From: a virus
Lineage: Duplodnaviria; Heunggongvirae; Uroviricota; Caudoviricetes
Virus record (IMG/VR): IMGVR_UViG_3300013902_000001
Coordinates: 84,000 to 147,999 of that record
DNA: 64,000 nucleotides
Direction: 5' to 3' (one strand)
Shown: positions 1,774 through 63,415 of the stretch, piece by piece
Layout: each line of letters opens with the position of its first letter
Position numbering within the stretch: position 1 is the first letter of the stretch
Notes under the pieces: generated by a model
Databases searched by the model: none
What the model was told of the DNA's origin: nothing
Seen by the model: only the letters and a program-made list of their open reading frames with translations
Made by a program: the position numbers and the translations under genes

Positions 1774-1986
1774 CTAACTTCGTTTTAATTCCTTAGTCAA
1801 AAACTCGATAAATTCTTCTTCTGAATTACACTGCTTCGCTAAGGTAAATCCTCCGAAGTTAGGATCGTTTATGAATATTTCTAATTTATATAAATCTCCA
1901 GAAATAGTTACTTTTAATTGCCCTATAAATATACAATTATATAACTTTTCTATGAGGTCAGTAATACGTTTTTCGAGACCATCCAT
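1774..1986 (-). CDS. Hypothetical protein; start overlaps the terL stop
   Basis: ATG at 1984-1986. The ORF ends at a TAG and may read on. Confidence 0.3.
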   Translation of the reverse strand: MDGLEKRITDLIEKLYNCIFIGQLKVTISGDLYKLEIFINDPNFGGFTLAKQCNSEEEFIEFLTKELKRS

Positions 1987-4900
1987 AAAGCATAGTTGAA
2001 TTATTTGTCTATTTTACTTCTCCATACTAAACTCGTCCATATTCATCCCTATAATAGCCTACATTACCTAGAAGTTTGACCCGAGATTCTGTTTTAACTA
2101 CTTTGTTAATCATTTCTTCATCTGCTAATAGAGCCATTCCTAAAGCAGCTACATAGTCGAATTTTCTTTTATTGGCATAAGAATACCTGAGTAATTCATC
2201 TATAATAGCTGGAAACTAAATTGTTTCGCAATAATCGGTTATATATTGTTGAATTAAATCGAGTTGATGGTCAATAATAGTCGGTGTTGCAGGAACTCCA
2301 AATTGTTTAAAATTTGTTTTCCCAGAAGAATTGGCGGTCGCCTAAGGACGGTGCATCATATAGGACAAAGCTCCAAATCGCTCAAAATACTATTTAACAC
2401 TAACACGAGTTGCCTCCATTAACATAGGTGCATTATAGAATTTACACAGTTTTAAAGCATTATCATAAGCAGTCTTAACGTCTTTCGGCCGATCCTTGTA
2501 AGTCGCCACTATTTTAGGTTGTTGTAATCCATAGGCTCGTCGAAAAACAACGACAGCAAACTAAGACACATCATCCTGACCAGTTGAGGTTGTACTATCT
2601 CCGTCTATTGAATCGCAGTTATGCGTTGGAATATAATGACACATAAAGGTACTTGTCTCACAGTGATAATTATAAACAATTCCAGTATATTTAGAAACTT
2701 CTATTTCAGAAATCTTAATATAAATATAATTACAGGTTTCATCCTCAAAGAAGCACCTTGGAATTGCATGATCCGTATAAGTTTTATATTCCCATTTATC
2801 CAATTTTAAATCCGGTGCAGAATACATTCTTTTAAATTTATTGATCATATCACCGTGAACATCTAATGTCCATGCTTGATTCACAACACTGAGTCTCTGT
2901 TGACTAGTAATCTGATGAACTTTCTTAGTTGATCTCATCCAATGAACTGTAGAAATAATTCCCAATGAGAAGAGAATATCTTGCATATCCTCTAATAATT
3001 TTAAGGAACAACTTACAGCATTATAAGAATCCCTACTTTTACATAAACAACCGTCAGCGGAAAAATATCCTACAATTAAATTCATTTTTAAATCATTCGG
3101 AAGAAACTTTACCCATTCTGGCAAATTTTTATTTTTTGCTCCAATTCCAAAATTTTCTTTGAAAAAATTCCAAAATTGTTGACAATTAAACAGAACTTCT
3201 GCAGAATTTCCGAGGCCTTTCTGCCTACTTTTTACATGTCTATTTAAAACTTCCGATATAATTCTTTTTGCCTTTTCTATATAAAAAGTTTCGTTTAGAT
3301 TAAATGTAATTCCGACACATCCACAAGGTCGGTTTTTAGTGGGAGTTGCGCACCAACCATCTCCTAAAATTAATCCTACTAACCACCAAAAATCTTTATT
3401 TCCTAATGGATTGCCGACTCTTTGATCTATACGAATATTCGATTCGTCCCATTTTTCCCACGGAATAGGTTTCTCGTGCTTGTAAATATTAGGAACTTTT
3501 ACAAAATCTCCAACTTTTACGTCCTTCATAAGTTTGAATCTAAAATCATATACGTAATATCGTCTATGAAGTCCGTGTTTTTGGGCATAGGCACCTCCAT
3601 GATAATGCTATTTAGGAGTTGCACAATATATAGGATGTTCGCCTGTAAAAGTTGTGGTGCTAAAGATATTATTCAACTTAACTTTGTAGATATTTTCATC
3701 TTCCTTTTGATATTGTTGAAGGTTTATGATATTTACCGGTTTTCCGTTAATTGAATATAATTTATCATCTAATGTTACGTCTTCAACTTTTTTAAGTCCA
3801 TCCTAAGTAAGAACTTTCTCGCCTGGAGTTAAACATCCAACGCAGTATAAATTCTTAAAAGGAACCCCAGCTGAGTCGCATAATGGCAATTCCGCGATTT
3901 CTATCTTTCCGGAACTATCGAACTGAATCATTGGCCTTTGAGTTCGATCACAATTATCTCCGTCCATCGGCCAGATTAATTTAGCCTTTTTAGGTTTTTC
4001 TACGATTTTATGGATTTCTATCGCTGCTAATTGATCTGCTAATTTCTCTCGATCAAATCGATTCTCGCCTTCCATAATAAAGGCATCTTCCGGGGTAAAG
4101 CAATACTCCGACTTTTTAATTAGAAGCGATTGTGGATCGTCTATTTGAGCCCACTGATCAAGATAATACTTTTTAGCACGCTCTTCGTCAACGACTCCCC
4201 TTTCATCAAATCCCACCTCACCATCTTCTCCACCAAACCACATCGAGTAAGATGGAATAAAATAGCCAGTCATTTGTGGTTCGCCATTAGCCATAGAAGT
4301 ATTATAGAAAGGAAGCATCGTATAACCTCTAGGATTATAAAACATCTTTTTCAAACCTTCTACAGCAGGACCCATATCCTGAGACGTTCCGAAAACAAAT
4401 CGATTCCCAACCCTTCGACCAAGAATTCGCACAAGTGCTTCCCCACGCTCATAAGTGGAAATCAAACAAGGGTTGTTACCAGACTCTTCGAAATAGATAT
4501 TTTCAGTACGACCACCACGGAGTTTATCTGGAGTATCGGCAGTAATTCCTTCAACTATAGATTTCTTTCCAGCTTCTACACCGTCCTGATCTACAGTCGA
4601 AGCGACTTTCTTCATTAAAGTATTAGTTTTTTGTTTATGAAGGCCTAACGCACCTTCAGTGCAAGAATCCAGAAAATCAAATTCTTGCCAGACTTTTGAT
4701 AGTGTGTCTTTCACATATTTTTCTAGAAAAGCAGTAACTACATTATTACTCTAATCTATAAAAGTAAAAGCATGAGCACAATTGGAAGCGGCTATCTCAC
4801 TCGCTCCGACTCCACGGCTCTTGAAAGCCAATCCATCATATCCAGCCTTTTTACACATATCTAGATAGTGGAAATACTCATACTATTTATTTACAAATAT

Positions 4901-5476
4901 AGGAAAATCTTCAGCACGCTGAGCTACACTACCTTCAGCTACGATAGGACTTAAAAGCCTATAATAGTTAAGAAAAAAGTAATTTTGCCCAGTAATAGTA
5001 TATTTCCCAACTGTATATCCATAAGTGCATCTTCGGATTTCTTCTGTCCAGTGTTGCTACCATTTATAGGTATCAGGGTAATAATCTGTATATCGGCCAA
5101 ATTTCCTATAATGATCTGCAGCTTCTGTAAAAGCTTTTGGATCGAAATCCAGTCCTTTATCTTTCGTTATAGGGCGATAGCCTGTAAGTTCATAAGATAA
5201 GGAAGGATCAAAATATTTGATTTTTTCAGTTTTAGGAACATCCCATTCCTTTACTGATTGAATGAGCTCTGGTTCTGGTTCTGGAATGGGATTTTTTTCT
5301 GCTTCCAGATACTCAGTCATAGCTTTTAATTCCTCAGCATCTTTTTGTGCTTTGGTTTTAGTTTTTCTAACATAAGCTTTTTTAGGAAGCTTAGAAACCA
5401 TTTGTGCTCGTTCTTCCGCTGTGGGAGCATTAACCCAAGCACTCTTTTCAAAAGATTTACTTTCTTTCTTTTTCAT
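1958..5476 (-). CDS. terL: Terminase large subunit (ATPase plus nuclease) interrupted by an intein. Read through six in-frame TAG codons; ends at TGA 1958-1960
   Basis: ORFs 5057..5476, 3803..4714 and 2561..3529 are in one frame, separated only by TAG. Plus-strand cta triplets sit at 5057, 4883, 4751, 3803, 3608 and 2561. The C-terminal nuclease-like region reads ...IWPMDGDNCDRTQRP...; an ATPase-like stretch FKSRGVGAS lies N-terminal to it. Confidence 0.7.
2615..3835 (-). mobile_element. Intein (about 407 aa) with a LAGLIDADG homing-endonuclease domain, inserted in terL
   Basis: Intein block A follows the extein ...KNLYCVG: CLTPGEKVLT(TAG)DGLKKVEDV. Two LAGLIDADG motifs are present (LVGLILGDGW and IVGYFSADGC). 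The C-terminal end reads ...FMCHYIPTHN followed by the extein Cys (CDSIDGD...). Confidence 0.7.
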
Positions 5477-6059: not shown

Positions 6060-8267
6060 TTAATCTTTAATATATTGTGTTATTTTTCCACCGTGTTTAA
6101 AGGAATAATTATTTGTTCCAATATAAGGTCCGTAAGTTACCCCTCTATCAAATTCTGGCACAGGAGTGGTAATAGGCTAATATGTAGGGTATTGCAAATT
6201 TTCACCGTGAATTGCCGGTATTAGGGCTGCATCAGGCGCATCCCAATAAACATAACGTGTATATCCAGGACTTCTAAGTTGTCCCTTTTTATGACCTTTG
6301 GTCGGACGTGTGGTAATCGTTTTTTCTCCGGTTTTAGTAAAATTGCCGACATCATTATTGAAAGGGTTTGCTTCTATATATCCAGTATCATATCTGATCG
6401 TTCTCGATTTTTTAGGCCGAACTGTCTTTTTCCAATAAGTTGGTTTTGTACGAGTTCGGTATCTCATCCCAGAGCCCTTAGTAGCAAATCCAAGATAAGT
6501 TTCCGGAGCAAAGGCTGTGTCTAGAACAGTATCTACGAATCCGTTACCAGTAGATCCAGTAACGTCAGTAAAGTAAGTTGGGGCCCCTCCGGAATATCCA
6601 CTTAAAATAGTATTATTCAGTCGATTACTAGTCCAATCACCAAATTTATAAGATCTTTCACCACTTGCCCAATCTCTAATATCTTTTACCGTTCCCCACA
6701 TCAACTCACTCGCTGGAGTTAAAGAATTTATAATGCCGACTCCAGCTTTATTTTCAGCATCTGCTACTTCATTCTAAAATCTTCTAGCTTGAGCTGCTTG
6801 GGAATTAACGCGACCGTTATCAGCAATAACGCCCGCTGCTGACATTGCCTTTTGAGCTTCTGGATCATTAACGAGTTCTTGCATTTCCTATTTTGATAGG
6901 TTGTGATCCTTCATCCACTTATCATATCCATCAGCTTTTAACGCTCCTGAGGCTACAGCATTTTTAAATTCTCGAATTCCCACGGATCTATTATAACTTT
7001 CACCCCGATTTTTAGATACCTCTTGATCGTAGGCATCCCCTTCATCATTCAAAGCTCGAAGTTTAGACGCCACTTCTGGAGAAACATAATTCAAAGCATT
7101 CTAATAATGATTATAATACTAGGGATCAGTAACAGCATTAGAAGCGTTCATTAAATATTTTAACATTTCTGGAGAGTTGTAATATTCACTAGCGCGAGCA
7201 TTTTCTGCAGAACTCACCCCTTGAATTTTACCAGCAGGCTGTTTTCCTTGATACTAACCTTTTCGAGTAGCGGTAAGAGTAGAGTCTCCGAGACCAGTAA
7301 TCCCTAAAGCGGAAGCTGTTTGATCTCCAACCAAACCATCAACTTTTAGAATATCCTTGTGTTGATTTTGGAAATTTTTAATCGCTGCTAATGTTTCTGG
7401 TCCAAATTTACCGTCTTCTGCAATCTGTTTACCTAAAGCCTGTTTATTTAGTGCTTGCTGAATTTGCCTTATTTGATCGGAGGAATATCTTCGATTATGC
7501 CAATAAGAAGCATTAACCCCTCCTTGCTAGAAAAAATTTATTTCTCCGCCTTTCTTTTTTATAGGCAACCCAGTACAACTATCCACTTCCATAATCTTCC
7601 CACCTACTCGAGCCAACTTGCATTTACAAGGTTTGATAGGAAGCCCTCTTTGAGCTTTTTTAGCTTTCTTGGCTTTTCCGCCACATTTCATTTGCTGAGC
7701 ACCTTGCATCATTTGCTGAATAACTTCTGCATATTGTATAGCTTGAGGATCGCCTTGCTAAGCTCTTTTAAGAATTTCTTTAATAGCACTTTGAGCTTGT
7801 GGATTTCCAGTCATGGCGTCTTCTACTAGCGTTTTAATTTCTTCCATAGGATCGGCAGTTACTCCGCCTTCTTGCATATAATCTGTTACCATTTTACCTC
7901 CTGTTTTAAACCAATTCGGGTTAATTGAATGCAGTAAATCTTGAAACCAATTACGATAATCATTGGCCTTAATACCTTCCTCTACGTAACTTCTATAACG
8001 CTTTAGTCTTTCAGGGTTATTTCCAGTTACTTCTACTGTATTTGTTACCGGGTAACCAATCATAGAATTATCCTCTGGTTCAGTCTAAGTTTTATATTTA
8101 TAATGACTATCAGGCCCACTTAAATGAACTTCGTACTCACTAGTACTCCCCCAGGGAGAAGATCCTGTTACTGTAAAAGTTGTATCAGATTTAAGAGTAT
8201 TAGGATCGGTGATTACTTGAGGTTGAGATACCCTACGTCCATCAGATGTCGTTCTAAATTTTGTCAT
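6060..8267 (-). CDS. Virion-associated protein with a peptidoglycan-binding domain, about 735 aa, read through several TAG codons
   Basis: ORFs 8085..8267, 7758..8063, 7527..7712, 6888..7094 and 6177..6704 share one frame and are separated only by TAG. There is a PG_binding_1-like segment: QALGKQIAEDGKFGPETLAAIKNFQNQHKDILKVDGLVGDQTASALGI. The 5' boundary is a TAA at 8283-8285; the 3' boundary is a TAA near 6060. Confidence 0.5.
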
Positions 8268-8821: not shown

Positions 8822-10270
8822 TTATTTTAAAATTAAACAATCACACGTTAAAATTAAACTAGCTGTATTAACAGCATTTAAAAGGGAATGTTCTGTAACT
8901 GCAAAAGGTTCTATAATTCCCATTTCATACAAATCTCCGTATTCTCCGCTTTTAAAGTTATAGCCATTCCAGAAAACATCGTCAGTGTTCAGATCTTTTC
9001 CTTGACTTAAAAGCTTAAATGGAATTTGTAATACATCATACAATTTACCGGAAACAGAACTTGGCACTCTCCGTATACTTCCGGAACCTGGTAAAATACC
9101 ACTTTCCAAAGCTGCTTGAGTGGCCATTACAGAATCTTCCACGCGATCTTTTCTCTCTTTTATTTCAACTTCAGAATATCCTCCAACATAAATAGTGGCA
9201 ATGCCAGAAGTAAAGTTAGCCAATCTTTTCTTGTGAAAATTCATTTCCATTTCAGTAACTTTTCCTTCTTCTATAATGCTTCTAATAGATGTTATTCGAT
9301 TCTTGATCTTTTCAGGATCCCCTTCAGTTCCTATAAAAGTTGTATTATCTTGTGAGATAATTACTTTCCGACAGGTCATTGATTCTCCTAAAAGAATCCT
9401 AAGATCTTCGATAGCAATTTCTCTAAAATTTCTATGTTCAGGACTTTTAACAGTGCACGATTTCAGCTTATCGTTACCTTGCTTATCATATAGATTACGA
9501 GCGAGGTTAAGAATAATTTCAGAATCGAAATCTGGTGCTATTAAAAGTAAAGATTTATCGGCTACCATAGCTCTGCCAGCTATTTCCGAAATCTTTTTGG
9601 TTTCTTCCATTTTAGTATCGGAAATATAAACCATTACATTTTCCAACACACATTGCCCCTTAAAGTTATTAACAAAATAAGGGGAAGAAAATCCACTATC
9701 GATTCTAAATCCTTCAGTATATTCAACTCGATCTGAAACATCTTCAGATTCAACAAACTGAACAATTCCATCTTTTCCAACTTTTGTAAAAGCTTCGGAA
9801 ACTAATTTGCCAATAACAGGATCATTATTAGCCGATAAAGTAGCAACTTTCTATAAATCCTCTGGAGAAGTTACTTCTCTTTTAAAAGTTTTAAGGTAAT
9901 CAATCGTTTTAGAACAATCCTGAGAAAGTTCTCGAGATAGTTCTATAGGATTTTCACAATCCTTAAATTCATTTACTAGTGCTCTAGCGATTACCAAACT
10001 AGTAGTGGAACCATCTCCAATAGTTTGAGCGGTTTTAACTGATATATCCCTCATTACTTCTATACCCATAGAAATATAAGGATCGGGATCATTTACGGCT
10101 GCTGCCACAGTAGCACCATCTTTTGTTATCTTGACCGAGGAAGGATATTTAATACACACATTCTTTCCTTGTGGTCCATACGTTTTTTCGACTGCATCTG
10201 CAATCAAATTTACACCTTCGATCAGCTTTTCTCTAGCATCTTGATCGAATTTTACATTAGCATAATTCAT
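8822..10270 (-). CDS. groEL: GroEL-like chaperonin (Hsp60). It contains one in-frame TAG (9851-9853) and a 60-nt segment (9781-9840) that is out of frame
   Basis: N-terminal MNYANVKFDQDAREKLIEGVNLIADAV...TAQTIGDGSTTSLV resembles GroEL [27 protein letters not shown]...AGDGTTTATVL. The middle KVGKDGIVQFVESEDVSDRVEYTEGFRIDSGFSSPYFVNN resembles [41 protein letters not shown]. The C-terminal ...GILPGSGSIRR...MGIIEPFAVTEHSLLNAVNTASLILTCDCLILK matches the GroEL C-terminus. Ends in TAA. Confidence 0.85.
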
Positions 10271-14337: not shown

Positions 14338-14754
14338 TCATTTAACTTTATAATTGTTTATACAAACATGTTTACTACTTGAAGGGTCATAGCTAATATG
14401 CAACCAGATAGACCCACGACTATTAGATTCGAAAAGACATTCCGAAAATTTACCCAATCGTTTTGCGATATCAAATATTTCTTTTGTCTTAGCATTAGTG
14501 TCCCCTATAATATCGGCAGCACAGCCTCTAAGATGAAACGAGTTAGGCTAACCTCCTACTTCTTTATTGAGTTTAGAACACCGATAACCGCTTGTAACAG
14601 TTATCGGCTTACCAAACTCTTCTCTTATAGGATCTAGAACTTCATTAATTAAACGTTCTAGATTAACCTTTACTTCCTCTGAGGGAGTATTGTCGATTTT
14701 CTTTTTAGAGGCTACAGAAGACTTGCACAACTCATTAATCGTGAAGTACTTCAT
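14338..14754 (-). CDS. Peptidase M15-family (VanY / L-Ala-D-Glu peptidase-like) endolysin, with one in-frame TAG
   Basis: MKYFTINELCKSS...ITVTSGYRCSKLNKEVGG(TAG)PNSFHLRGCAADIIGD... matches the M15 signature (SGYR...SxHxxGxAxD). Ends at TGA 14338-14340. Confidence 0.6.
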
Positions 14755-15124
14755 CTTTCTTTTTCTTATTATACTTACGCTTAGGCTTTTTAACTGGTTC
14801 TGGAGCTGCTTCTACTTTTACTAGGTTAAGCAACGGAAGAACCTTATCAGCAACAGCCTTAAGTTTCTTAAGAACCTCATCAAACTTCCCTATAGGAAAA
14901 GCTTTTACCAAATCATCTTTCAAACTATCCAACTCTTTAATCTTACCATTAAGGGTGTTAAGAGTGGCCTTAAGTTTCAATTTAGTTTCATCGAGCTCAT
15001 TCATAAGATCGATATTCTTTTTACGAAGCTTATCCACGTATTCTGCATAAATAGCTTCGTATATAGCTTCTTTAAGCCATTTGCAGTTGAGCAACTGCTT
15101 TACAATCCATTTTTTCAATTTCAT
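14735..15124 (-). CDS. Coiled-coil protein
   Basis: K/L/E-rich, 129 aa. Confidence 0.3.
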   Translation of the reverse strand: MKLKKWIVKQLLNCKWLKEAIYEAIYAEYVDKLRKKNIDLMNELDETKLKLKATLNTLNGKIKELDSLKDDLVKAFPIGKFDEVLKKLKAVADKVLPLLNLVKVEAAPEPVKKPKRKYNKKKKDEVLHD

Positions 15125-15279: not shown

Positions 15280-15618
15280 TCAATCATAAATCCCGTAACG
15301 CCTTTTTAAATCATTAAGATCTTTCTCATTATAAGCTGATAAAACTGTATTTACATTCAGCCTATATTTATAAGGAGCTTCTCGAACATAAGGTTGGTCG
15401 CTCACTATCTTCTCTTTAGTTTCAATCCCCTTAATCTTATTTTCTAATTTTTTTAACTCCTTTTCTACTAATCGAAAATCTTCTGGGATGGGATTTAGAT
15501 ATTCCACCTTATAATTAGTAGGAGTATTCTTAGCAACCCATTTCTTTACTTTTGTAGTACGGGTAATTTTATCACCCTGGATTATTACTCCAGGTAAATC
15601 TTTTAATTCATTAGTCAT
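15280..15618 (-). CDS. Hypothetical protein
   Basis: ORF track, 112 aa. Confidence 0.3.
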   Translation of the reverse strand: MTNELKDLPGVIIQGDKITRTTKVKKWVAKNTPTNYKVEYLNPIPEDFRLVEKELKKLENKIKGIETKEKIVSDQPYVREAPYKYRLNVNTVLSAYNEKDLNDLKRRYGIYD

Positions 15619-15634
15619 AAGTCATTGATTATTA

Positions 15635-15934
15635 GTTGCTTCGCCTGGATTCGAACCAGGACTCCAAGTTTTCTTCACCACTCTATATTACTATAGCCAT
15701 TTCTGTTGTGGTCCGGACTTTGTCTTCACCTTACTTTTACAAGCTTAGGTGTCTCGTATAAAGTCTCTACACTCGGCTTAATAGCCTAGCTCGGCGTTGT
15801 CCCTAAGGAGTTTCACCGACTTAGCGAGATTTACATCTGAAAGTTTCCTACCAGAGCTCCTGTCTGTAACTTACTGAAAATCAAGTAGTTACAAGGAAGA
15901 GACTTGTTTGCTAACCCTTACAATTCACGAAGCA
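15635..15934 (-). tRNA. Candidate amber-suppressor tRNA (anticodon CUA) interrupted by a group I-like intron of about 225 nt. By plus-strand coordinates the exons are 15898-15934 and 15635-15672
   Basis: Minus-strand 3' end: T-arm CCTGG-TTCGAAT-CCAGG, then acceptor CGAAGCA plus A. The exactly complementary 5' acceptor strand TGCTTCG lies 300 nt upstream (plus-strand cgaagca at 15928-15934). Anticodon stem CAAGT/ACTTG. 5' loop part CUCU, 3' loop part AAA. Only the split CUCU|...G|AAA satisfies the group I rule (exon ends in U, intron ends in G), giving loop CU-CUA-AA. A GGAG candidate internal guide sits about 40 nt into the intron. U1:A72 is a Gln-like feature. Confidence 0.5.
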
Positions 15935-16026
15935 GTAAAAATCCTCCCGTGTTTCACAACATGAGGAGGAAAATCATTTATATGAAAAAATAATAATTCA
16001 TCAACCCACAGTAGGTTCGTTGCATA

Positions 16027-16284
16027 TTATGTATTCGTCAAAATCTTCTTCAAATCTTCTTCTGTAAATTTTCCTTTATGAGTTGCTATTCTTCTTCCTG
16101 ATTCCGATAATACTAAGAAAGCAGGAGGATTACCATAAACATTATAATCAGACATAACATCTGGATCTTCATCACAATCGAATATCTCGTAATCGAGACT
16201 ATTCTCAGAACAAAATCTTTGAATCAGATCCTTCATAGATTTACTATATCTGGAGCAACACGTGTGGAAATAAATTATTTTCAT
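16027..16284 (-). CDS. Small thioredoxin/glutaredoxin-like protein, tentative
   Basis: 85 aa, N-terminal HTCCSRY. Weak. Confidence 0.25.
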   Translation of the reverse strand: MKIIYFHTCCSRYSKSMKDLIQRFCSENSLDYEIFDCDEDPDVMSDYNVYGNPPAFLVLSESGRRIATHKGKFTEEDLKKILTNT

Positions 16285-16943
16285 TTGAACTTTACAGTCA
16301 ATTTATTATCCTTAATTTCAATCCTAACGTTTTCATCAGAATGCCAGATAGCACTAGTAACTTCAGTAAGAATCGGAGTTGGAAGTTCTATAGTTTCCTT
16401 TTCGCGAAGTTCTTCTATACAAGCTTCTATAACAGAATCTTTAATAGCATCAAGCAAATCCCCACTCATTTCGTCAGAATCCTCATAATCATCAGCTTCA
16501 TCAATTATATCCATTATAGGCGTATAATCAGTAACCATTTTCAGATAATATTCCAACCAGATATGTTCATTCTCAGGAATTTCATTAAGCAGTGTGGCCA
16601 GTAATTGAGCTTTGAACTTAGGATCCTCATCCTCTTCTGGAGTTTCGTCAGATTTAATTTCTCGTTCAACGTCGTTAAGAATACACTTCAGCGTAATTGC
16701 TACCAAAGGAAGGAGATCTCGATGTTTCTTACTAGCGAGCTCAGCGTCATAAACATCCTCAGTTTGTGTGCAGTAAGCACTAATCAATTTAGTAATTTTA
16801 CGAAGCGTAAAATATTCAGATTCATTCATTCCGAGATACTCAGAAATAAACTTTCTCCAACCCAGTTTCTTAAGCAAATTCTTTTCGGTTTCGGTAAGAT
16901 CTCTCAAAAGATCTTTTTCCAAAAGCATTAATTCATCATTCAT
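16281..16943 (-). CDS. Acidic hypothetical protein
   Basis: 220 aa, D/E-rich. Confidence 0.35.
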   Translation of the reverse strand: MNDELMLLEKDLLRDLTETEKNLLKKLGWRKFISEYLGMNESEYFTLRKITKLISAYCTQTEDVYDAELASKKHRDLLPLVAITLKCILNDVEREIKSDETPEEDEDPKFKAQLLATLLNEIPENEHIWLEYYLKMVTDYTPIMDIIDEADDYEDSDEMSGDLLDAIKDSVIEACIEELREKETIELPTPILTEVTSAIWHSDENVRIEIKDNKLTVKFK

Positions 16944-26651: not shown

Positions 26652-26994
26652 GCTGCTGTGGCGAAATCGGAAGTACGCATCAGACTTATTATTGAGTGCT
26701 TTAAGAGAAATCTTAGAAGTAGAATTCCCCTAACAAACCGAAACCTCGTTTATGGCGACATAAACTTTGGCGAGGGCTCTCTAAATTGAGGTAATTTTTT
26801 GATCGAGAATATCTACCTCATAAATGGCGTAGAGGCCATACAGGGAATACCTATACTGATAAAGTGTTATCAGCATGGTAAAGAAATGGTCCAGACTACA
26901 AAATCTCTCTGAGATTGCTCGTATCAAAGCGAGTGTGGTTTCGAAAATCTGAGGGTTTGAAAAAACCGTGTGGGTTCAAGTCCCACCAGCAGTA
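26652..26994 (+). tRNA. tRNA-Leu(UAA) with a group I intron of about 256 nt (26688-26943) between U34 and A35
   Basis: Acceptor GCTGCTG/CAGCAGT. D-arm GCG-AAATCGGAAGTA-CGC (Leu type II-like). Anticodon stem TCAGA/TCTGA. Loop CTT|intron|AAAA: only this split has the exon ending in U and the intron ending in G. Long variable arm GGGTTTGAAAAAACCGT. T-arm GTGGG-TTCAAGT-CCCAC. Confidence 0.65.
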
Positions 26995-27367
26995 CAAAAG
27001 TTTTTTCATATATATTAAGGTATAAACTTATTGTAGGGGAAGTTTCTCGTTTTATAACCTATCCCTCTTTACGAATTGAAACCGACTAAAGTAAGGTTAT
27101 AAGTGGGTTTCAAAAACTTGACTTCCCGGGAGTCTTTACTGCTAAGTTATCCTAGATGGTTATAAGCAGATTTTTAACTGTTTCCGAGGCAAATAAAAGA
27201 TAGTATATAATATCTTTTATGGTTGGGGCGCGGCGAATAATAAGTTTTCCGGACCTTATTATTCGGATAGGAAACAGTTTTTGCCTATTAGATTAAAGGC
27301 AGATCGTTAGCTTTTCAAGCTAAAGAACTAGGATCGTTACCTAGATAGGCTACTAATTACAATTATT

Positions 27368-33149: not shown

Positions 33150-33290
33150 GGCTCCTTAGCTCAGCTGGATAGAGCAACAGCCTTCATAGTGATAATAACA
33201 CTTAAAAATTGCGTGTAAAAGGTTAATATAGGTTCGATTCCTATTACATGCCTAAGCTGTGGGTCGAAAGTTCAAATCTTTCAGGAGTCA
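33150..33290 (+). tRNA. tRNA-like gene (cloverleaf intact) interrupted by a 67-nt insertion in the anticodon loop. Arg(CCU) if spliced at a U/G junction
   Basis: Acceptor GGCTCCT/AGGAGTC. D-arm GCTC-AGCTGGATA-GAGC. Anticodon stem ACAGC(33177-33181)/GCTGT(33256-33260). Loop residues CT|...G|CCTAA. Variable GGGTC. T-arm GAAAG-TTCAAAT-CTTTC. The insert 33184-33250 contains a T-arm-like ATAGG-TTCGATT-CCTAT. Confidence 0.4.
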
Positions 33291-33308
33291 CTAACTATTT
33301 ATAGGAAT

Positions 33309-35486: not shown

Positions 35487-35865
35487 TTTTATGGGCCTAG
35501 TTGGTTTTGATTCACATTAGTGAAATATAAATCTGTCAGGATGGTAACGCCCTACGTTGTTGTGTATATCCTTCAATTTTTTTACATTTCAACAATACGT
35601 TACGAAAACAATAAATGCAGATAGCTACAAAGCTTTCCGTGCTGCTGCTTAATTAGCAAGCACCTGGTAATGCTCAACCAAGGAACATAATGAGCATGGC
35701 AGTTTCCTCGTTCTTAAAATGAGGTGGTGGAGGTGGATATCAAACCGATATCCCCGAAGAGATAAAACACTCTTAAAAAGGTTATGACAGTAAAGAATTT
35801 ATATTAAACGGTGCTGAAGACGACAGTTCGATTCTGTCTAGGTCCACATTAAATTTTTAATCAAT

Positions 35866-60920: not shown

Positions 60921-61990
60921 TAGAAATTTTTAAAATTATTAAAGGTAATACCTGTAATGCAGCCTATGATATTAATAGGATTATAAAAGGTAATACCTAT
61001 CAACAGTCCGATTACTCAGGAGTGTATCTTTATACAGATACACTACCTGAGTTAAAAGGCCTTTCTAAACAAAAACCAGTAATTACAAAACAAATTCAAT
61101 CAAAAGATAAAGTTTATTTTGCTAGTGGATGTGGCTATCCATCACTTCTATTTAGTAAATATAAATCTGACAGTAATATTAAGCTAGACTTAACTAGAAC
61201 TACTTCTCCTGATAGAGCTGATGTTATTGTTATAAGTCCAGAGTGGATGGATGATTATAATCCTTGGAATTGCCATTTGTCTACCCTCTATAATGATAAT
61301 AACGTTAGATGGCAATCTAACACTTTTGATGGTTTTAATGAATCTGCAGCTGCTATTAATAGGCAAAAGTTAACTACTTTCTTAGGTCGCGAGGCTTATT
61401 TTATGATGAAAATATCTAATATTCAGGCAGAAACTTTTGAATTAGTCCGAAAATATCCTAATAAAATAGTATATACTATGGATCTGATTGAATATGTCTT
61501 TCCATTTCTGCCTGTAATGACAGATAGTGAGTTGGATATTATTATTTCCATGCTAAAAACTTCTGATGAACAGGCTAGAGCTACGGGAATTCAAATGTTT
61601 CAATATTCTAATTTTTCTGATAAAATTTATACGATTGTTAGAAGACTAAAAACAGAAGTTCCTTATGTTTATTTTCCATCAGAATCAGCAGCTTCAGCAG
61701 CTTGGAAATATCTTTATTCTTGTCTAGGAATTCCAGTGGAAAAATTTACCAGTGGACAATCTTATGCTAGTAATATAACATTTTATGCTACTAAAGTTAT
61801 GGGAAATCCTTTAAATACTCAAAATCTAGATGATTTAAAAGCCGATATTTTATCTCAATTAGTTGAAAAATTGAAATCAGATACTCAATTTTCCACTTTT
61901 AGGGAAGATTTAGCATTAGTGGGGTATCGGTTAACAGTAGAGCCTATACCTGAAGATGACTCGGACGGAGAGACAGAATCTAGGGATTGA
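60917..61990 (+). CDS. Hypothetical protein
   Basis: ORF track, 357 aa. Confidence 0.3.
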   Translation: MIEIFKIIKGNTCNAAYDINRIIKGNTYQQSDYSGVYLYTDTLPELKGLSKQKPVITKQIQSKDKVYFASGCGYPSLLFSKYKSDSNIKLDLTRTTSPDRADVIVISPEWMDDYNPWNCHLSTLYNDNNVRWQSNTFDGFNESAAAINRQKLTTFLGREAYFMMKISNIQAETFELVRKYPNKIVYTMDLIEYVFPFLPVMTDSELDIIISMLKTSDEQARATGIQMFQYSNFSDKIYTIVRRLKTEVPYVYFPSESAASAAWKYLYSCLGIPVEKFTSGQSYASNITFYATKVMGNPLNTQNLDDLKADILSQLVEKLKSDTQFSTFREDLALVGYRLTVEPIPEDDSDGETESRD

Positions 61991-63415
61991 TAGGTGGAGA
62001 GATGCTGGAGGGCGAGGATCCGTTGTTTATCCGACCGGAACAGGGAAGTCGAGGACAGCTTTAATGGCAATTGAACGGGTGACTTCTAGAAATCCGAATT
62101 TGGTTATTAGAATTATAGTACCTACAAAAGTTTTAAAAGACCAATGGGAACGGTTAATTGAACAACAACAATGGGATTTAGATTTAAAAGTTTTAATTCT
62201 CAACTCTGCTGCCAAAAAGTCATTTAAATGTGACTTTTTGATACTAGATGAAATCCACCGCTCGAATTCTCTATCCTTTAGACAGATTTTTACTCAATGT
62301 TCTCCCATTTTGATACTTGGATTAACTGCTACTTATGAAAGGTTAGATGGATTTGAAAAAGAAGTGGTAGATCATTACTGTCCAGTCTGTGATACAATTA
62401 CTGTTAAAGAAGCTACTGAAAACGGATGGCTTTCTCCTTATAAAGAATATAAAGTTCTGCTTAATGTCGATTTAACAGAATACAATAAAGCTAATAAAGA
62501 ATTTATTCAGCATTTTTCCTTTTTTGATTTCGACTTTAATTTAGCATTATCTTGTGTAACAAACGTATTTGCACAACAAAAAGTTGCTAAAATGATGAAT
62601 TGTCAATTAAAAGAAGTAAAAGCTCATGCTTTTGCTTGGAATAGGGCTTTACATTTTAGAAAAGAATTTATTGCCAATCACCCAAAGAAAATTGAGATTG
62701 CGAAGAAAATTATAGAAGCTAGAAGTGATAAGAAAATTATTACTTTTAATACTAGTATAGAACAGTGTGAAAAATACGGATTTGGATATATTGTTCATTC
62801 TAAACAATCTAAAAAGAAAAATGCAGACATTCTAGAAGAATTTTCTCATTGCACTTCTGGGGTGATTCATAGTAGTAAACTTTTAATAGAAGGACTTGAT
62901 TGTCCTGGATTAAGTGTTGCTATTATTACAGGCTTCAATTCTTCTAAAACATCTAAAGTCCAAGAGGTTAATATATTTGCGTAGGCCTCTTAATCTGCCT
63001 AATTCTGGGGATGAACTCAAAGAGTCAATCCAGAGCTATAAAGAATGTGAAACGACTATCTCGAAAGAGAGTACACTATAAGCTAATGATAGTGGAAACG
63101 GCAGACGTATTAAAACGAAGATATAGTCTAATCTATATGGTGACATATAGCAGTTCATAAGAGAACGCATATAATCTTGCGAATTATATGGAATATAAAT
63201 GTGGGCGATGTATTCGAAAAGAAGAAGGAAAGACTGCAGAAATTTTTACGTTAGTTTTACGGGGAACAGTTGAGGATCAATGGTTTAAGAAATCTTCCGA
63301 AGACCTCAATTTCATAGAAATCAACGAATCCGAGTTAGACTTAGTATTACAAGGCAAATTAAACAAGAATGAAAAAACTCAAGATAAAGTCAATAATGAT
63401 CTTTTAAGAAAATGA
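61956..63415 (+). CDS. SF2 helicase (UvsW/RecG-like) interrupted by an ORF-less group I intron of about 200 nt (about 62985-63187)
   Basis: Exon 1 motifs: motif I YPTGTGKS, motif II FLILDEIHR, motif III LGLTATYER. Exon 2 (63188..63415) carries motif VI YKCGRCIRKEEG. The spacer holds a group I S-like element aagatatagtcta (63119-63131). Confidence 0.55.

Follow-up and report, generated by a model that had tools for sequence, protein, structure and literature searches.

Group I introns of the IC3 subgroup interrupt the anticodon loops of transfer RNA (tRNA) genes such as the cyanobacterial and plastid tRNA-Leu(UAA), the Azoarcus tRNA-Ile(CAU) and the cyanobacterial tRNA-fMet. Amber suppressor tRNA(CUA) genes, which are uninterrupted and found by standard tools, are in turn known from phages that recode TAG to glutamine, such as the crAss-like phage cr7_1 (Yutin et al. 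2021 PMC7886860; Borges et al. preprint 10.1101/2021.08.26.457843). Here we describe a locus in which these two components appear to be combined, namely a tRNA(CUA) gene split by a 225-nucleotide (nt) group I intron, at positions 15636-15934 on the minus strand of a 64-kb stretch of a Caudoviricetes genome (positions 84,000 to 147,999 of the IMG/VR record IMGVR_UViG_3300013902_000001). This whole stretch is referred to as the window and all coordinates are positions in it; the locus was read on the minus strand of 15500-16100. Like the IC3 tRNA introns, the window intron is a ribozyme of the ~200-250-nt class without an open reading frame (ORF) that sits in the anticodon loop, with a short P1 that engages anticodon-loop bases and ends in a U.G pair, a terminal omega-G, GNRA tetraloops in the P2 and P9 regions, the core motifs GUAGAGACU and AAGAYAWAGUC, and exons presumably held by the anticodon stem. 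A requirement for this stem has been shown for Anabaena (Zaug et al. 1993, listed in PMC3984707). Unlike the IC3 tRNA introns, it resides in a phage nonsense suppressor, at the 35/36 site, and possesses an additional hairpin, P9a, and a P1 extended by a hairpin of 29 nt.

The cr7_1 tRNA(CUA) resembles that of the window in its loop CUCUAAA, its U1 and A73, its Gln-type D-arm and its association with TAG-to-Gln recoding of late genes. However, the window gene is ribozyme-split, has an irregular D-arm and in its spliced form is only 68% identical to the cr7_1 gene, an intronless tRNA(CUA) that goes under the name 'tRNA-Gln'. In Patescibacteria, tRNA genes are hidden from annotation by group I introns, including some at the 35/36 site (PMC13011429, 2026). 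In contrast to the window, these are cellular sense tRNAs (Asn, Asp), the introns at their 35/36 site were mostly placed in subgroup IA and no Patescibacteria tRNA intron in IC, and phage tRNAs, suppressors and recoding are not mentioned in that study. The theta ribozymes, which are of the hepatitis delta virus-like type (PMC10879173), share with the window the physical tie of a ribozyme to the maturation of a phage suppressor tRNA, but are self-cleaving elements that flank the tRNA, whereas the window has a predicted self-splicing intron inside the anticodon loop; that paper makes no mention of introns. As of 2014 all known phage group I introns were in protein-coding genes, despite the many phage tRNA genes (Hausner et al. 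2014 PMC3984707). For some clearly recoded genomes it was noted that no suppressor tRNA could be detected, and divergent tRNAs that go unrecognized were suggested as the reason (Yutin et al. PMC7886860; the Zeta crAss-like paper PMC12386605). Full-text literature searches, with most subscription journals outside their coverage, yielded no account of a phage suppressor tRNA gene that contains an intron, in agreement with the first-pass annotation of the window, which was not aware of any. Thus, the components are known, while their combination appears to be undescribed and recurs in other phage lineages.

The first-pass annotation had called the locus from its letters as a candidate amber suppressor tRNA with a group I-like intron, and its statements on the acceptor and T-arm pairing, the exon boundaries and the anticodon stem are correct to the base. 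The 37-nt 5' exon (15898..15934, minus strand, as are all elements of the gene) comprises the acceptor 5' strand TGCTTCG (15934-15928), a D-arm with G18 and G19 in its loop, the stem strand CAAGU and the anticodon-loop residues C32 U33 C34 U35. The intron (15673..15897) then intervenes between anticodon positions 35 and 36. The 3' exon, likewise of 37 nt (15636..15672), supplies A36 A37 A38, the stem strand ACUUG, a 4-nt variable loop (GAGU), the T-arm CCTGG-TTCGAAT-CCAGG (15660-15644) with GGUUCGAAUCC, the acceptor 3' strand CGAAGCA (15643-15637) and a discriminator A (15636); no CCA is encoded at the 3' end. The acceptor strands are fully complementary over 7 base pairs (bp), the anticodon stem CAAGT/ACTTG has 5 bp, and the loop formed upon splicing, CU-CUA-AA, has 7 nt with U33 in place and a purine at position 37. 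ARAGORN recognizes the 74-nt spliced product as a tRNA, and when run with intron search, as had been proposed for this strand, it reports a tRNA(cta) with a 225-nt intron at the exact coordinates of the locus. With default settings it makes no call at 15636-15934, whether it is run on the whole window or on the region by itself.

The claim that a single group I-legal register exists was borne out by listing all registers that place a U at the end of the 5' exon and a G, close to the family-aligned omega-G, at the end of the intron. Exactly one register yields a tRNA, ...AAGUCUCU|UCCUUG...GUGAAG|AAAACUUG, with the anticodon CUA and the predicted ligated junction CAAGUCUCU|AAAACUUGG. The GGAG guide, which had been placed about 40 nt into the intron, occupies intron nt 38-41 (15860-15857), in the internal guide sequence column of the family alignment described below, and is complementary to the exon strand of P1, CUCU (15901-15898), with the splice-site residue U35 (15898) opposite G38 as a U.G wobble. 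Read by eye, this column varies with the exon end of the host tRNA: the exon end and guide are ACUU and GAGU in Leu(UAA), GCUGU and GCAGC in Asn(GUU), CAU and GUG in Met(CAU), CUUU and GGAG or GAAG in Lys(UUU), AUUU and GGAU in Gln(UUG), and CUCU and GGAG in the window (CUA).

The 225-nt spacer contains the group I core (P3-P7-P9) that the earlier annotation had looked to, with intact and covarying helices. From its 5' end, the P1 extension hairpin UGUAACU...AGUUACA (intron nt 5-33; 15865..15893), seen in both the minimum-free-energy and centroid folds, precedes the guide and is followed by the P2 hairpin with a GAAA tetraloop (15837..15854), which was also recovered in the fold. Next come the P3 5' strand (15829-15825), J3/4 and the P4-P5-P6 domain (15819-15772), a segment (15772..15829) in which the pairing of P3 and P4 is seen in the alignment. 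The catalytic core (15715..15767) fits the RF00028 consensus GUAGAGACU...AAGAUAUAGUC and consists of the P7 5' strand GAGACU with its bulged A (15767-15762), the P3 3' strand CGAGA (15756-15752), P8 with a GUAA loop (15751-15727), J8/7 AAGACAA (15726-15720) and the P7 3' strand AGUCC (15719-15715). The 3' segment (15673..15712) has P9, ACCAC/GUGGU, enclosing the P9a hairpin with a GUAA tetraloop, followed by GAA and the terminal omega-G (15673), which aligns with the terminal G of the family (...GUGGU(G)AAG|). An alternative P9 (CCA/UGG), taken from the Rfam alignment, was dropped in favor of ACCAC/GUGGU, as only the latter covaries.

Relatives of this intron were sought by scanning IMG/VR for the J8/7-P7 motif shortly upstream of a tRNA T-loop. 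This recovered at least 119 viral contigs, in ~60 of which ARAGORN with intron search calls intron-split tRNAs, a number that conflicts with the 2014 statement (PMC3984707). The window intron is 66-76% identical to such phage tRNA introns over more than 200 nt. In a MAFFT alignment of the window precursor with 40 IMG/VR pre-tRNAs (41 sequences), an architecture of J3/4-P4, P7, J8/7 and P9/P9a is common to the family. We counted pairing on this alignment for P2, P3, P4, P5, P6, P7 (as a pseudoknot), P8, P9, P9a and the T stem. Standard pairs occupy 85.9% of the cells as against 32-41% in slid registers, changes on both sides of a pair occur in 383 cells as against 45-95, and none of 500 shuffles matched the observed pairing and covariation values. 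P4 and P7 are 100% paired in all 41 sequences, the former nearly and the latter essentially invariant, and the pseudoknotted core is completed by P3, which is 99% paired with five of its five pairs covarying. All seven pairs of P2 have changed on both sides within the family, P8 covaries, P9 alternates between CCAC/GUGG and CUAC/GUAG, and P9a is 94% paired with 5/5 pairs covarying. P5 and the inner part of P6 are variable in length and align poorly.

A core covariance model (R1) built from 24 family members, with the window and every CUA-type tRNA left out, matches the window at 15671-15835(-) over the full model with 126 bits and E ~2e-30 (1.8e-30), its E-values being rough on account of a short calibration. 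This places the locus far beyond chance. The general Rfam model RF00028, run on a 471-nt region as had been recommended, likewise gives a full-model match (15888-15693, minus strand; 42.5 bits, E = 1.4e-9). Taken together, these features identify the spacer, as judged from its sequence, as a group I intron that is IC3-like, a label based on resemblance in core motifs, size and host site, and on RF00028.

As same-species loci we took contigs that encode both of the TAG-free flanking proteins, which gave 19 loci on contigs of up to 172-176 kb. These are 98.7-100% identical across the locus, with both tRNA exons invariant, and since flanks and intron do vary, purifying selection on the exons is supported by the comparison. 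Variation within the intron is confined to three positions: the first lies in the L6 loop, the second turns an A-U into a G.U pair of P9a, and the third, in the peripheral extension of P1, would break a predicted A-U pair. More distant relatives were reached via GroEL homologs. In one of these, L309 (GroEL 77% identical), the same gap contains a tRNA(CUA) gene interrupted by an intron of 221 nt, which shares 73% identity with the window intron and has the P1 extension stem (GUAAC/GUUAC), the GGAGCUC guide and the GGUGAAG end in common with it. L310 (75%), L311 (56%) and L312 (54%) have intronless tRNA(CUA) genes that are found by default ARAGORN; that of L310 lies in the same syntenic gap and has the loop CUCUAAA. 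The spliced L309 tRNA is 85% identical to the uninterrupted L312 tRNA and collinear with it across ...CCGGUCUCU.AAAACCGUUAUA..., and this pattern of presence and absence of the intron fixes the ligation junction for this intron lineage. The comparison with these relatives constitutes, at the sequence level, the strongest evidence for the predicted junction. Other searches for relatives were negative: the 415-amino acid (aa) M15 peptidase-domain protein used as a query found none in IMG/VR, and BLASTN of the locus and of the type II pre-tRNAs gave no match among deposited phage genomes.

The proposal that the tRNA lies within a TAG-recoded late module stood up well. Minus-strand ORFs in 1-20700 contain 73 in-frame TAGs distributed over 15 ORFs, as against almost none in the plus-strand module, and reading through TAG restores ORF lengths, with the longest open frame growing from 653 to 1179 codons. 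Pfam searches on the recoded genes identified a GroEL-like chaperonin, the M15 peptidase-domain protein, a PD-(D/E)XK nuclease and a 1172-aa LAGLIDADG-domain protein. When the TAG sites were compared with orthologs from L309-L312, counting sense codons only, those of the window faced Q 35 times, E 20 times and K 15 times, and the TAG sites of the relatives likewise correspond mainly to Q (L309, 34; L312, 65). The 1172-aa ORF (1958-5476, minus strand), which contains 11 in-frame TAGs and in which Pfam detects only the LAGLIDADG domain, is probably the large terminase (TerL). It apparently harbors a LAGLIDADG intein of ~400 aa, since homologs in related phages have ~766 aa. Its site 198 is Q in 109 of 111 homologs, some of which may have been translated with code 15. 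The chaperonin gene (8822-10270, minus strand) has a single in-frame TAG at residue 140, which would correspond to the Q of E. coli GroEL (AIAQVGTISAN). Its closest deposited relatives, from Flavobacterium and Bacteroides phages, are 33-35% identical, so that this lineage is thinly covered by the phage genomes on deposit. One GroEL relative is deposited as a contig of a 'Bacillota bacterium' metagenome-assembled genome, GCA_030526175.1.

The tRNA itself points in the same direction. U1-A72, which the first-pass annotation read as a Gln-like feature of an amber suppressor, is present along with A73, and BLAST alignments of the spliced tRNA with phage tRNA-Gln genes span the junction, the tRNA-Gln(CUG) of Streptomyces phage TunaTartare being 70% identical. 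The similarity to tRNA-Gln and the alignment of TAG with Gln lend support to that reading, and charging with glutamine is most likely, as judged from these sequence features. A set of TAG-free minus-strand genes (14735-15124, 15280-15618, 16027-16284 and 16281-16943) forms an island around the suppressor tRNA, and these could be translated before the suppressor is supplied.

The arrangement is not confined to this lineage. A second motif scan of IMG/VR, for the guide GGAGC followed by the P4 motif and then the P7 motif, with subsequent splice-rule enumeration, uncovered ten more intron-split tRNA(CUA) genes, six of which are Gln-type, type I tRNAs (L262, L264, L265, L287, L301, L305) and four type II tRNAs (L064, L274, L291, L307). 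Their introns score 105-134 bits with R1, and the CUCU|A junction is found in all ten as well as in L309. L264 and L305 are 88% identical to the cr7_1 tRNA(CUA) and collinear with it across CUCU|A. We assessed recoding as the share of a locus covered by long ORFs under the standard code and with TAG read through. Coverage rises from 0.16 to 0.95 in L301, from 0.16 to 0.69 in L264, from 0.19 to 0.42 in L064 and from 0.12 to 0.38 in L307. It also rises in L305, L287 and L274, although reading through TAA raises L305 and L274 at least equally. There is little gain in L262 (0.31 to 0.32) and L291 (0.34 to 0.49), and L265 is too short for the test. Clear TAG recoding is seen at most of the tRNA(CUA) loci whose length allows the test, whereas loci with intron-split sense tRNAs show no comparable rise.

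Sense tRNAs that carry the family intron include those for Leu, Asn, Lys, Met, Arg, Thr, Gln and others, with many Leu(UAA) genes interrupted at the classical position, 34/35. The anticodon loops of phage tRNAs commonly harbor group I introns, even if some of the contigs may be misclassified cellular DNA. We also noted, as leads only, candidate intron-split tRNA(UCA) genes at L093:6007-6275(-), L115:9400-9685(+) and L271 (~6769-6936, minus strand). The first two are Trp-like (A1-U72, G73) and lie in loci that open upon TGA read-through (0.32 to 0.86 in L115), whereas the third is much less clear (0.45 to 0.62); in all three the pairing of P1 with the aligned guide is weak, so that the exact junction is uncertain. 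Two other sets of candidates were rejected. The pattern CTCT..RGGAG..TCGGTGAA gave 120 matches, none of them with a group I core and all attributable to chance. The intron-mode ARAGORN calls 'Pyl(cta)' (L023/L053) and 'SeC(tca)' (L025/L026/L036/L106) have poor stems, or give Arg(UCU) at sites consistent with the family.

The anatomy of the gene, its membership in the intron family, the covariation of the intron, the junction as seen against intronless orthologs, the TAG recoding and the correspondence of TAG to Gln are established by these observations. In our view the locus is very likely a functional gene, split by an intron, for an amber suppressor tRNA of the glutamine type. According to this proposal, transcription of the minus strand would give a precursor of at least 299 nt, in which the IC3-like intron would fold into P1-P9. 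The guide GGAG would pair with the last four bases of the exon, CUCU, with U35 wobbling with G, while the 5-bp anticodon stem would also keep the exons together, presumably as in the classical tRNA introns. Free guanosine would then attack after U35, the terminal G of the intron would dock, and the exons would be ligated into the 74-nt tRNA with the loop CU-CUA-AA, to be followed by end processing and addition of CCA. Charged with glutamine, the product is expected to read the 73 in-frame UAGs of the structural, packaging and lysis module.

Several observations weigh against this proposal. The D-arm is not canonical: as the first-pass annotation had cautioned, its stem has only 3 bp (UUG/CAA), and in addition nt 26 is missing and the connector that joins the acceptor stem to the D stem has 3 nt rather than 2. 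D stems of 3 bp are customary for tRNA-Gln, and are also seen in L305 and in the cr7_1 tRNA(CUA). Folding the spliced product, another of the checks proposed earlier, gave a divided outcome, in that ARAGORN forms the cloverleaf but the cloverleaf of the unmodified RNA (-16.9 kcal/mol) is not the computed minimum (-20.5). The intron has a fold-energy z-score of only -1.58; thermodynamic folding alone is weak evidence and was therefore not relied on. P1 is short, with four exon pairs and one intron pair, and no P10 pairing was seen in the window intron. A terminator-like hairpin, UCCUCC...GGGAGGA with a U-run (15937..15970, minus strand), read from the sequence, ends 2 nt before position +1 of the tRNA, and no convincing promoter was found for the locus. 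The hairpin was not called by a simple terminator scan because its loop is too long; a similar one precedes the tRNA(CUA) of L309 and L310, and it may mark the end of the upstream gene or be a processing signal.

On the side of Rfam, the RF00028 match is a full-length one, but its score of 42.5 bits is below the curated gathering score of 50. It is also absent from whole-window scans in both gathering and E-value modes, the former reporting only a tRNA-Glu and a transfer-messenger RNA (tmRNA), and the latter having lost the match to filters. The family-specific leave-out model gives 126 bits, and the shortfall is therefore due to the general model and not to the sequence; the misses of the default scans reflect the tools rather than the locus. 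In L309-L312 the tRNA(CUA) belongs to type II and has U1.U72 and a long variable arm, in contrast to the type I tRNA of the window, so that orthology holds for the introns but not in any simple way for the exons. An intronless allele of the exact window tRNA was not found when the exact 3' exon was sought in IMG/VR and the exact ligated junction in JGI metagenomes, a result that is uninformative. Finally, the self-splicing activity is predicted from the sequence, and we infer that the gene is the sole suppressor of its genome from scans that covered ~74 kb of ~172 kb.

As for why the intron is present, it is best seen as a selfish or neutral passenger belonging to a family that has spread among phage tRNA genes. 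This is the simpler explanation because relatives are intronless and the same intron family occurs in many sense tRNAs. A broader scheme, which we offer tentatively and regard as possible though unlikely, is that intron-split suppressors are a general, overlooked class. ORF-less IC3-like introns would move among phage tRNA anticodon loops by retargeting a guide of 3-5 nt, and would have repeatedly invaded CUA, and possibly UCA, suppressors, thereby accounting for many 'suppressor-less' recoded phages. At least in some lineages they may have been retained as useful, by pacing the supply of the suppressor, by keeping host anticodon nucleases away from the anticodon loop of the precursor or by guarding the gene against endonucleases of competing phages.

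The first-pass annotation had gone further in one direction, suggesting that the need for splicing adds a regulatory layer to the code switch, such that the intron is kept since splicing delays or tunes the suppressor supply and so times the turn to the late code. The location of the gene inside the recoded module, ringed by the TAG-free island, would fit such a role, and for the theta ribozymes, which lie beside suppressor tRNAs, a part in recoding has been proposed (PMC10879173). However, L310, L311 and L312, with the same TAG-to-Gln recoding, make do with an intronless tRNA(CUA) at the same site, and cr7_1 likewise has an intronless one. Moreover, the family intron also resides in sense tRNAs for Leu, Asn, Lys, Met, Arg, Thr and Gln, one of which, a tRNA-Leu(UAA), lies in the window itself, and the minimal 225-nt ribozyme contains nothing sensor-like. 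Hence, this suggestion fares poorly and we consider it improbable. It is very improbable that the gene is disabled or redundant, with an intron that splices poorly or not at all and UAG being read by another tRNA(CUA) or a host factor. The irregular D-arm and the subthreshold RF00028 score could be read in this way, and 98 kb of the ~172-kb genome lie outside the scanned part. Against this stand the intactness of all catalytic-core elements, which fit the invariant columns of the family, and the invariance of the exons in 19 loci whose flanks and introns vary, with two of the three intron changes being structure-neutral. Further, the locus is the syntenic counterpart of the tRNA(CUA) of the relatives, and no second tRNA(CUA) was found in the 74 kb scanned (the window and 10 kb to its right). 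The notion of a chance cloverleaf, the locus being instead another noncoding RNA such as a tmRNA or small RNA, or an intron of a protein-coding gene, could draw only on the silence of default ARAGORN and gathering-threshold Rfam, and is already refuted by the 126-bit leave-out match, the covariation, the unique tRNA-forming register, the intronless homologs collinear with the junction, the location of the 37-nt exons in an intergenic gap with no reading frame crossing the junction, and the results of a check for the tmRNA and other alternatives raised by the annotation itself, in which the real tmRNA lay elsewhere in the window and the other Rfam matches in the region had E of 0.7 to 10.

In practice, the intron conceals the suppressor from tRNA and Rfam scans run at their defaults, whereas a search that allows for introns, or a family model, picks up the gene at once. 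Introns in the anticodon loop are thus a concrete and checkable cause of 'missing' suppressors, and may be the reason for the apparent lack of a suppressor in some recoded phages; an intron-aware tRNA step is advisable in annotation pipelines for recoded phages. If the proposal of an intron-split suppressor is correct, expression of the late proteome of this phage would depend on a ribozyme, which would offer a simple experimental handle on code switching.

The tRNA(CUA) intron is one of three group I introns in the window. The tRNA-Leu(UAA) gene (26652-26995, plus strand), detected by ARAGORN with intron search and missed by its default mode, has a 256-nt group I intron after U34, at the classical site, and its spliced form, of 88 nt, makes a clean cloverleaf of type II. 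In this intron the guide and P2 are ~90% identical to those of the phage Leu-intron family and R1 gives 37.9 bits on its core, although RF00028 has no match to it even in a region scan. The third intron (62960-63170, plus strand) directly follows a helicase-like ORF (61956-62993) and probably splits a protein-coding gene. It scores 59.5 bits with RF00028 in a region scan, above the gathering score, and 32.5 bits with R1, and went unreported in the whole-window gathering scan. An intron-mode ARAGORN call of a tRNA-Arg(cct) with a 67-nt intron at 33150-33291 is likely to be spurious. The tmRNA (35493-35849, plus strand), uncalled by ARAGORN in the window, is recognized by RF00023 with 49.8 bits (gathering score 47), and in the relative L312 a tmRNA with the tag GKNIRIAA lies beside a tRNA-Glu, as it does in the window.

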